From Candidatus Micrarchaeota archaeon (GTDB lineage: Archaea; Micrarchaeota; Micrarchaeia; Anstonellales; Bilamarchaeaceae), in contig JBGFRX010000008.1 in the NCBI GenBank assembly GCA_041694885.1, positions 1 to 61,191 of the forward strand: a DNA stretch of 61,191 nt. Reading direction: 5' to 3'. This document shows, piece by piece, positions 10,600-12,772 of this stretch. The notes under the pieces are model-generated. The model was not told the DNA's origin and made no database searches. It worked only from the letters and a program-made list of their open reading frames with translations. Each line of letters opens with the position of its first letter. Within the stretch, counting starts at the first letter, position 1. Position numbers and translations under genes: made by a program.

Positions 10600-10811
10600 G
10601 GAATTCCTTGCAACTACCAGACTTTATCGGTGAACGATAAAGTTTTGGAGGTGATCTATCCGCAGGTTCCCCTACGGATACCTTGTTACGACTTAGCCCT
10701 CCTCACGCATCTTCAATTCGAACCAGGCAAGAACCTGGGCCTCATCGAAAACGCATTTGGATGACTTGACGGGCGGTGTGTGCAAGGAGCGGGGACGTAT
10801 TCACCGCGGTA

Positions 10812-10854
10812 GTTCACCGGCGCTAACCATCCTCGAAAGGCGTGTTAAGACCGT
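10812..10854 (-). other. 16S intron, 43 nt (about E. coli position 1363)
   Basis: BHB: UCAU/GUGA helix, bulges CA|A and AC|U; excision restores the loop UCAUCAU of h43. Confidence 0.85.
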
Positions 10855-11020
10855 TGATGAACCGCGATTACTAGGGATTCCACGTTCACGAGGGTGAGTT
10901 TCAACCCTCGATCCCAACCAAGACCGGATTTGAGAGATTAGCTTCGCCTTTCGGCGTTGCGACCCGTTGTTCCGGCCAATGTATGCCGCGTGTAGCCCAC
11001 AGGATTCGGGCCATACTGAC

Positions 11021-11133
11021 TTCGGTTAACTATGCTGCCCAGAATAACATTTGCGGTTTCCAGTTTTCCGTTCCCAGTTCTGAAACAGGAAACCAACTCT
11101 AAAAAACCATGCGTACCCATTCAGCATATCTAT
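11021..11133 (-). other. 16S intron, 113 nt (about E. coli position 1197)
   Basis: BHB: CGGU/ACCG helix, bulges AG|A and AA|G; excision restores GACGGUAG|GUCAGUAUG. Confidence 0.9.
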
Positions 11134-11257
11134 CTACCGTCGCCCACTCCTTCCTCCCATTTAACACGGGCAGTCCCTTTAGAGTGCACCCCGTCCTGAG
11201 ACAGAGTTGGCAACTAAAGGCATGGGTCTCGCTCGTTGCTGGACTTAACCAGACAGT

Positions 11258-11281
11258 TTGTGCTCCCGCTTGGTACGGGAT
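11258..11281 (-). other. 16S intron, 24 nt (about E. coli position 1080)
   Basis: GUGU/GCAC helix, bulges GA|A and AA|A, upper stem UCCCG/CGGGA; restores GUGA-AC-UGUC. Confidence 0.8.
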
Positions 11282-11407
11282 TCACACCACGAGCTGACGA
11301 TGGCCATGCAGCACCTCTCGGCTTGTCAGGCAAGATCTTCAGTCTGGCCTTCATACTGCCGTCGCCTGTGGTGAGGTTCCTGGCGTTGTATCCAATTGAA
11401 CCGTAGC

Positions 11408-11627
11408 TTGTGGAGTAATAAGGAATCTGATTTTCTCAATTTCGTTTTCGAAAATAATAAATCAAATACTTCTGCTTTGGTTTTGTTCGCTGCAATCGCG
11501 CATTCGATAACATATTTATTGTCGATAATAAAATCGAAATTTCATGCCTTTTGTCAAACCGCCTTTTGTTTTATCCGCGAAAATCCCAAAATTTTCGAGC
11601 CGGTTGTGTTTGAATTCCTTCTTACCT
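11408..11627 (-). other. 16S intron, 220 nt (about E. coli position 947), with nuclease-like ORF remnant
   Basis: GUGG/CCAC helix, bulges AU|A and AA|G. The spliced AUGCU is complementary to GGCAU at about 1231-1235, supporting the junction. Confidence 0.88.
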
Positions 11628-11786
11628 ATCCACCCCTTGTGGTGCTCCCCCGCCAATTCCTTTAAGTTTCAAGCTTGCGCTCGTACTCCCCAGGCGGCTG
11701 ACTTAACAACTACTCTACAGCACTTCTGCAGCTTACGCTGGAGAAACACCGAAGTCAGCATCATTTACAGCTGGGACTACTCGGGT

Positions 11787-11894
11787 TTTTAGTGTCCGGA
11801 GAAATTTCACTAAACGTTTTTTCTTTGACGGATGTCCAAAATGAATTATATCGTTAAATTTTCGCAACCATTCTTTAGTGTTTCTCTGGAACAA
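11787..11894 (-). other. 16S intron, 108 nt (about E. coli position 793)
   Basis: UUAG/CUAA helix, bulges AU|U and AA|A; restores the universal GGAUUAGAU|ACCC. Confidence 0.9.
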
Positions 11895-11958
11895 ATCTAA
11901 TCCGATTTGCTCCCCCAGCTTTCGTTCCTCACCGTCGGACGCGTTTTGGGAAGACGCC

Positions 11959-12004
11959 TTAGCAAAACTTTTTGGGCACGCACCTGAAAATCTCCAAAAA
12001 GTTT
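11959..12004 (-). other. 16S intron, 46 nt (about E. coli position 729)
   Basis: GGCG/UGCU helix, bulges AA|A and AA|G, long stem AACUUUUUGG/CCAAAAAGUU; restores GGCGAA|GGCG. Confidence 0.85.
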
Positions 12005-12251
12005 TTCGCCACTGGAAGTCCTTCTAGGCTCAACGCATTTTACCGCTACCCCAGAAGTACTTCTTCCCTCCCCCGCTCCCAAGTCCCGCAGTATCCACTG
12101 CACGCGTTAGGGTTAAGCCCCAACATTTCACAGCGGACTTACAGGACCGGCTACGAACGCTTTAGGCCCAATATTCGTGGGTACCACTCGAGGCGCTGGT
12201 ATTACCGCGGCGGCTGCCACCAGTCTTGCCCACACCCTTATTCTCCTAGCT

Positions 12252-12276
12252 CTATAACCAGCCGTGTGACAGCTGT
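12252..12276 (-). other. 16S intron, 25 nt (helix 17 region)
   Basis: GUAA/UUAU helix, bulges AA|A and AG|A; restores CUAGUGUAAAAAGCUAG. Confidence 0.72.
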
Positions 12277-12772
12277 TTTTACACTAGGCAAAAGGCATTG
12301 GCAAAGCCAATACCACTCAGAGTTCCCTCGTCACGCTTACGCGCATTGCGAAGGTTTCGCGCCTGCTGCATCCCGTAGGACTATGGCCCTTGTCTCAGTG
12401 CCATTCTGGGGGCCACCACTCCCATGGCCCCTACGGATTATCGGCTTGGTAAGCCGTTACCTTACCAACTACCATGATCCGCCGCAGTCCCATCCTGGGG
12501 CCGTTTGCTCCGATTCACAAACGGTTTCGCCCGTCAGGCATTCCAGCGTAGACGGACTATCGCGGGTTGTCCTCAGTTTCCCAAGGTTGTCCGCGTCCCG
12601 AGGTTAGGTTGACTACGTGTTACTCAGCCGTCTGCCGCGCATCCAAGTGAATGCGCTAACTTGCATGGCTTAATCGAACTCTGATAGCAGTACCCTCCAG
12701 CAGGATCAACTGGAGTTACGAATTCAGGAAGTTATCTTTGGAATTGACAAGAGAGTTTGAATAATTCCCCTC

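Follow-up and report, generated by a model that had tools for sequence, protein, structure and literature searches.

Introns of the bulge–helix–bulge (BHB) kind are well known from archaea. For 16S ribosomal RNA (rRNA) genes, the catalogue of Jay and Inskeep (2015; PMC4496867) lists 13 archaeal intron loci (374, 548, 722, 781, 803, 901, 908, 919, 978, 1093, 1205, 1213 and 1391), with the variable regions all intron-free. In Micrarchaeota, BHB introns have been drawn schematically beside group I introns (PMC6125680). Here we describe the 16S rRNA gene on a 61,191-nt stretch of DNA from a Candidatus Micrarchaeota archaeon of the family Bilamarchaeaceae (assembly GCA_041694885.1, contig JBGFRX010000008.1, positions 1–61,191 of the forward strand), which is referred to as the window. 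This gene is interrupted by seven inserts. We interpret them as putative protein-spliced BHB introns that would be excised and the exons joined, and assign this interpretation a probability of about 0.85. The introns are of the ordinary archaeal kind; seven of them in one gene, and most of their positions, are unusual.

The complete archaeal 16S rRNA gene was located on the minus strand at window positions 10646–12716 (Rfam SSU_rRNA_archaea, RF01959, model positions 1–1478, 1199.5 bits). Its 2071 nt comprise eight exons with a total of 1492 nt and seven introns with a total of 579 nt. The gene was aligned by MAFFT with 20 relatives, which are 16S genes from genomes of the same genus, family and order, and exactly seven inserts of 25, 46, 108, 220, 24, 113 and 43 nt were seen. 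Alignment with E. coli rrsA placed the last exon base at positions 729, 793, 947, 1080, 1197 and 1363 for six inserts, and the seventh in the apical loop of the short archaeal helix 17 (h17). A preliminary description, made from the letters of this DNA alone, had given the same lengths and positions and had estimated the mature length at about 1490 nt. Excision of all seven inserts leaves 1492 nt, matching relatives without inserts (e.g. G019, G023 and G025; 1492–1496 nt).

The assembly (0.92 Mb in 41 contigs, 93.6% complete) contains this single 16S gene. Because no 23S gene was found in the assembly or in the window, the 16S gene stands alone. A metagenome bin of 41 contigs in which no 23S gene was found could raise the suspicion that the interrupted gene arose by faulty assembly or is a pseudogene in decay. 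We regard this as very improbable indeed: the gene is the sole 16S gene of the bin, its exons are 96.6% identical to those of its nearest relative (genome G004), and genomes assembled independently in other studies have introns at the same sites.

As judged from the Rfam structure lines and the E. coli alignment, five inserts lie in hairpin loops (h17, the h23a tetraloop, the 790 loop, the h36 loop and the h43 loop) and two in helix strands (h30 and h34). With the exception of h17, all of these sites belong to conserved functional elements. Two of the six elements, the 790 loop and h34, form part of the P-site/subunit-interface and decoding regions and are conserved universally. A retained insert would therefore probably be harmful at any of the six sites, and in the 790 loop and h34, where the inserts have 108 and 113 nt, retention can hardly be squared with function. 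These six sites in conserved functional loops or helices speak against the alternative that some or all of the inserts are expansion segments kept in the mature 16S rRNA. So does base composition, the introns being AT-rich in comparison with the exons (38.9% versus 55.4% GC). We consider this alternative improbable; its most likely candidate is the insert in h17, the only one for which a retained expansion segment appears plausible.

The geometry expected of a BHB intron was taken from canonical pre-tRNA: in the 5' to 3' direction, either strand runs through 4 nt of the central helix (H), a 3-nt bulge, which is cut after its second base, and the next helix. This translates into a rule of pairing between two 4-mers, one at positions −6 to −3 of the exon relative to the 5' junction and the other at positions −6 to −3 of the intron relative to the 3' junction. 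A central helix with four out of four pairs and two 3-nt bulges was found at all seven junctions, at placements which leave the mature sequence unchanged. The helix, the bulges and the predicted cleavage after the second bulge base are thus as the preliminary description had drawn them, and BHB geometry at every junction argues against expansion segments. In all seven folds the inner helix (h') starts directly after the first bulge and stops directly before H. The outer helix (h) is contributed by a native rRNA stem at h17 and 1363 (6 bp each) and at 793 (4 bp). At 729, 947, 1080 and 1197 it comprises only 0–3 bp, which corresponds to the HBh' form.

All seven introns are encoded on the minus strand; in the following, an arrow marks the predicted cut within each bulge. 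Intron 1 (12252–12276, 25 nt) is situated in the h17 apical loop, in variable region V3. Its H is GUAA/UUAU, the bulges are AA↓A and AG↓A, h' has 7 bp, and the native h17 stem acts as h; with its relaxed motif, it is the least certain of the seven. Intron 2 (11959–12004, 46 nt) follows A729 in the h23a tetraloop and has H GGCG/UGCU, bulges AA↓A and AA↓G and an h' of 10–11 bp. This motif is slightly relaxed, as H contains two G·U pairs and one extra unpaired U. Intron 3 (11787–11894, 108 nt), after U793 in the 790 loop of h24, has H UUAG/CUAA, bulges AU↓U and AA↓A and a long h'. Intron 4 (11408–11627, 220 nt) interrupts the 5' strand of h30 after position 947, with H GUGG/CCAC, bulges AU↓A and AA↓G and an h' of 13 bp; its sense strand contains no open reading frame (ORF). 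Intron 5 (11258–11281), the shortest with 24 nt, follows A1080 in the GNRA-type loop of h36 and has H GUGU/GCAC, bulges GA↓A and AA↓A and h' UCCCG/CGGGA. Intron 6 (11021–11133, 113 nt) interrupts the 3' strand of h34 after position 1197; here H is CGGU/ACCG, the bulges are AG↓A and AA↓G, and h' has 11 bp with one mismatch. Its centre is a heptamer-repeat hairpin (GGUUUCC UGUUUCA ... GGAAAAC UGGAAACC). Intron 7 (10812–10854, 43 nt), after A1363 in the h43 loop, is a strict hBHBh' motif with H UCAU/GUGA, bulges CA↓A and AC↓U and h CGCGGU/ACCGCG. The seven predicted exon/exon joins are CCTAGTGTAAAA/AGCTAGGAGAAT, TCCAGTGGCGAA/GGCGTCTTCCCA, ATCGGATTAGAT/ACCCGAGTAGTC, CAAGGGGTGGAT/GCTACGGTTCAA, CTCGTGGTGTGA/ACTGTCTGGTTA, GGGCGACGGTAG/GTCAGTATGGCC and CGCGGTTCATCA/TACCGCGGTGAA.

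The joint probability of finding the motif at all seven junctions by chance is about 1.8e-10. In this estimate, the background was how often complementary 4-mers occur in the pooled introns, and equivalent junction placements were allowed for. Outside the permitted placements, a helix with four out of four pairs occurred in 2 of about 106 other registers (17 registers were tested per intron). The 21 aligned 16S genes contain 48 inserts with a length of 15 nt or more, and 38 of these obey the same pairing rule.

Independent support was obtained from relatives in which the sites are empty. For six of the seven introns, the predicted ligated junction (12 + 12 nt) is identical to the empty site of relatives, with no mismatch over 24 nt; the junction in h17, a variable region, has two mismatches to its best empty-site match. 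The claim that excision restores conserved 16S sequence thus held at these six junctions, and at h17 apart from the two mismatches. Identical empty sites were found for 729 in G004 and G005, for 793 in all five congeners, for 947 in seven relatives, for 1197 in 11 relatives and for 1363 in G004, G005 and G007.

Compensating changes could be followed in two introns. The 1080 intron is present in 11 Micrarchaeota genomes (10 further assemblies in addition to that of the window). Both sides vary in each of its five h' pairs, and pairing is kept in 99 of 99 alignment cells; none of 500 shuffles reached this value, and slid controls gave 24–58%. The invariance of H in this set follows from the search pattern and hence is no evidence. 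At 1363, a homologous intron of 55 nt in G003 shows the compensating change from CGG/CCG to CAG/CUG. The other sites are represented by too few sequences for this kind of test.

Since group I introns are known from Micrarchaeota rRNA genes (PMC6125680), self-splicing group I or group II introns were considered as a further explanation of the inserts. It is barely conceivable: with 24–220 nt, the inserts are too short for a catalytic core, and Rfam gave no hits for them, whether with the gathering threshold or with E ≤ 5.

Protein-dependent splicing calls for an endonuclease and a ligase. Two genes of the genome match Pfam tRNA_int_endo. The preliminary description had asked which type of EndA is present, and the answer is the epsilon type. 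Residues 3–296 of one gene product align to residues 3–296 of the ARMAN-2 epsilon2 structure 4FZ2 (395 aa) with E = 1e-108, and the FRIY, HSKH and SVKK motifs are identical. As epsilon2 EndA we understand a single chain of about 390 aa in which a partial N-terminal unit is followed by a catalytic unit, carrying the Tyr/His/Lys triad, and by a C-terminal structural unit. The contig ends at about residue 309 and truncates the gene; the full 392 aa are present in an 86% identical orthologue from the Micrarchaeota metagenome-assembled genome (MAG) L037. Judged by this homology, the genome encodes a three-unit epsilon2-type EndA. Enzymes of this type cut relaxed motifs (PMC3239211, PMC5829648).

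The RNA ligase RtcB is encoded in the window itself (5741–8701, plus strand; matches to Pfam RtcB, with 547 bits over two stretches, and to Intein_splicing). Transfer RNA genes with introns are also frequent. When introns were allowed, 19 of 31 tRNAs predicted genome-wide by ARAGORN contained one, and the BHB pairing rule is obeyed in 11 of these 19 introns, within 3 nt of the approximate ARAGORN borders. At the sequence level, the interpretation as BHB introns that the preliminary description had put forward is thus supported by the motif, the restored 16S sequence, the empty sites, the covarying inner helix, and the combined presence of EndA, RtcB and tRNA introns. Cutting and joining of the RNA is what we infer from these observations.

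The intact RtcB gene also bears on another possible fate of the transcript. EndA could cut the RNA and the pieces could stay unjoined, resulting in a fragmented 16S rRNA in the small subunit that resembles the products of bacterial intervening sequences cut by RNase III. However, every archaeal BHB rRNA intron that has been studied is, as far as is generally known, ligated (see PMC4496867), and a 16S rRNA in eight pieces, one of them of only 64 nt, would lack precedent. Together with the presence of the ligase gene, this makes lasting fragmentation decidedly improbable.

For splicing with ligation, we propose the following mechanism. In the primary transcript, each insert would fold locally, the exon 4-mer located 3–6 nt before the 5' junction pairing with the intron 4-mer located 3–6 nt before the 3' junction. 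Past the 3-nt bulges, h' would stack on the central helix, while in five cases the stem of the native hairpin would serve as outer helix. The three-unit epsilon-type EndA would then cut after the second base of each bulge, which amounts to 14 cuts per transcript. RtcB would join the eight exons to a 16S rRNA of 1492 nt and would circularize the introns.

Several observations weigh against this proposal. The motifs of the h17 and 729 introns are relaxed, with central helices that are weak or rich in G·U pairs and, in one case, an extra unpaired base. When these two sites are folded without constraints, the central helix is missing from the minimum-energy structure or shifted in it (at h17 it is missing). 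Moreover, h has only 0–2 bp at 729, 947 and 1080, so that cutting at these sites would require the broad specificity that epsilon2 EndA is reported to have (PMC3239211, PMC5829648). At h17, retention as an expansion segment also finds positive support, as the site is the tip of a variable hairpin where an expansion might be tolerated. The top of the h17 insert (CGU-CAC-ACG) is constant in four congeners while the lower stem varies. In the congener G006, the h17 insert lacks the 4-bp central helix (UUAU is replaced by GUAA); EndA may be unable to cut this insert, which might then stay in the rRNA. Finally, the h17 junction, with or without the insert, had no match in the metagenome contigs of the JGI, a collection which does not include this organism.

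The distribution of the inserts among close relatives points in the opposite direction. The nearest relative, G004, carries only the h17 and 1080 introns and thus differs from the window gene by five introns. Two of these, at 793 and 1197, occur in no congener. In the other congeners 2, 3, 6 and at least 8 inserts were counted (at least 8 in G003); the h17 insert is found in five of the six congeners and is missing from G003. Inserts have been gained or lost between genomes with 92–97% identical exons, leaving exact empty sites, a behaviour that argues against expansion segments. Site 729 is also filled in G006, G007 and G008, the motif of G007 being strict (GGCG/CGCC), and site 947 is also filled in G008.

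Upon extension of the analysis to the 16S genes of the whole order (176 species genomes, 128 of them with a match), about 30 full-length genes had an intron-free length of 1487–1511 nt, and the rest ranged from 1527 to 3766 nt. By their lengths, interrupted 16S genes are the rule in this order and a high load is a trait of the lineage. The intron load, which had been called very high, is indeed so in comparison with the published Thermoproteales catalogue. It is, however, not exceptional among relatives, as at least eight inserts are present in G003 and, of the full-length 16S genes in the order, well over half exceed the intron-free length.

Likewise, the suggestion that several sites may be new can be upheld only in part. 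None of the seven is among the 13 loci of Jay and Inskeep (2015). However, site 793 with the same intron strand of H (CTAA) is filled in more than 120 archaeal species genomes, among them Woese-, Pace-, Nano-, Aenigmat- and Micrarchaeota, Methanosarcinales, Asgard archaea and Aigarchaeota; occupancy was confirmed by reading the sequences of L181 and L190. Site 1197 is filled in at least two other DPANN genomes, a Micrarchaeota MAG (L082) and an Aenigmatarchaeota MAG (L079, with a long intron), where the introns are larger and have similar ends. A loose pattern for site 1197 yielded mostly chance matches in bacteria, and only those in L079 and L082 were real. The intron in L082 (positions 1898–2669, JAHFEN010000013.1) is about 770 nt long and contains an ORF of 248 aa which ends just before the 3' splice site and shows no Pfam family. 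Measured against the published catalogue, all seven sites are thus new, yet not all of them are rare in public genomes.

The heptamer repeats in the 1197 intron belong to a sequence type that is widespread in this genome. Tandem tracts of three to four 7-base units of the form RRAACNN (e.g. GAAACTGGAAACGGAAAACTG) occur 80 times in the 0.92 Mb, compared with 0.6 times in shuffled sequence. Three tracts are in the window (11054–11081, 38513–38540 and 49612–49639) and 77 at further sites of the genome. Transfer RNA introns contain seven of the tracts, and 11 are located no further than 150 nt from a tRNA gene; one is in the 1197 intron, where the unit is GAAACNN plus its complement. The tracts often form two hairpin arms. 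The 16S inserts of G034, a genome from another family, are filled with the same kind of heptamer sequence. BLAST of the introns against the genome did not reveal any paralogous intron copies, except for the heptamer tract of the 1197 intron. In the larger introns, no known RNA families and no C/D-box motifs were found. On the strand opposite the 220-nt intron, a frame of 89 codons without a stop (11396–11665, plus strand) spans the entire intron, which has a chance of about 2% for this composition. As it has no ATG and no Pfam match, it is probably a chance frame and not a gene.

The difference of five introns from a relative with 96.6% exon identity, and the 1197 hairpin shared with tRNA introns and their flanks, have led us to consider an active spread of BHB mini-introns in the rRNA and tRNA genes of Micrarchaeota, independent of homing endonucleases. 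New introns would then originate from the 7-base-repeat hairpins, or from a reverse action of EndA and RtcB on excised introns followed by copying into DNA. This idea is tentative and rather unlikely. If it were true, ribosome assembly would depend on a chain of seven splicing events.

Further features of the locus and of the splicing genes were noted. A candidate pre-16S processing stem flanks the gene on the minus strand. Its 5' arm (12773–12799) consists of a 20-nt helix arm, CCAA and an AGA bulge and ends 57 nt before the mature 5' end. Its 3' arm (10573–10599), with UUGG, an AAA bulge and a 20-nt helix arm, starts 47 nt past the mature 3' end. A cofold of the flanks and a motif scan did not reveal a strict BHB in the processing stem; only this one candidate was obtained, and its inner helix is weak. 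The TATA-like sequence TTTATAAA (12941–12948, minus strand), which precedes the mature 16S 5' end by about 225 nt and the candidate processing stem by about 140 nt, is a likely promoter as read from the sequence. The RtcB gene is about 2 kb away from the 16S gene and convergent with it, and contains an in-frame intein of about 500 aa. Two tRNA genes in the window were missed by ARAGORN in default mode, which found no tRNA there, and were detected once introns were allowed. These are tRNA-Asp(GUC) (13467–13579, plus strand; 39-nt intron) and tRNA-Lys(CUU) (38473–38600, plus strand; 51-nt intron). The second tRNA_int_endo gene encodes a protein of 159 aa, an alpha-like paralogue of EndA (contig C8, 15191–15667, plus strand) in which Tyr, His and Lys are apparently kept. 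Almost all genomes of the family have genes of both EndA types, with 61–71% identity within the genus. In the papers on epsilon2 EndA that were consulted, we found no mention of such a paralogue.

If the transcript is spliced as proposed, each small ribosomal subunit needs 14 precise cuts and seven ligations by the tRNA-splicing enzymes, an unusually heavy dependence for a reduced genome. The seven motifs would be a natural set of substrates for the broad-specificity epsilon2 endonuclease. The close relatives, with 2 to at least 8 introns and exact empty sites, are a good system for the study of gain and loss of ORF-less archaeal introns. There is also a practical consequence for surveys. The 793 and 947 introns split the binding sites of the widely used primers 785F/806R and archaeal 958R, so that in amplicon surveys this organism would be missed or assigned a wrong amplicon size. 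Because site 793 is filled in more than 120 archaeal genomes, this bias would be general.

In comparison with described systems, the closest match are the 16S introns of Thermoproteales, Desulfurococcales and Aigarchaeota (PMC4496867), which include small hairpins of less than 50 nt as well as larger introns. They share with the present introns the junction motif, the expected enzymes, the location in conserved loops or near bulges, and AT-richness. The present host, in contrast, is a DPANN archaeon of mesophile type; its seven sites are all absent from the 13 catalogued loci, and the h17 site is in V3. Moreover, seven introns are present in one gene, none of which encodes a homing endonuclease. 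Within the same phylum and in the same gene, ARMAN-2 and ARM-1 have a 16S insertion at 1093 (Sakai et al., 2022; PMC8784108). This is a single ORF-bearing insert of about 520 bp, the splicing of which was left open by the authors, whereas the gene described here has seven ORF-less mini-introns at other sites. In the literature searched, we found no report of a DPANN 16S gene with several mini-introns. With respect to the enzyme, ARMAN-2 provides the precedent, as its non-canonical and multiple tRNA introns are cut by epsilon2 EndA (Fujishima et al., 2011; PMC3239211; structure 4FZ2). Enzyme type, tolerance of relaxed motifs and intron-rich tRNA genes are the same, but the substrates in that study were tRNAs and rRNA introns were not addressed. 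A bacterial counterpart are the rRNA insertion sequences of the candidate phyla radiation (CPR) (PMC11270868 and work cited there). There, too, ultra-small symbiont genomes carry many inserts, and universal primers are defeated. The CPR inserts, however, are bacterial and are group I/II-like or removed without a BHB motif, EndA or RtcB.

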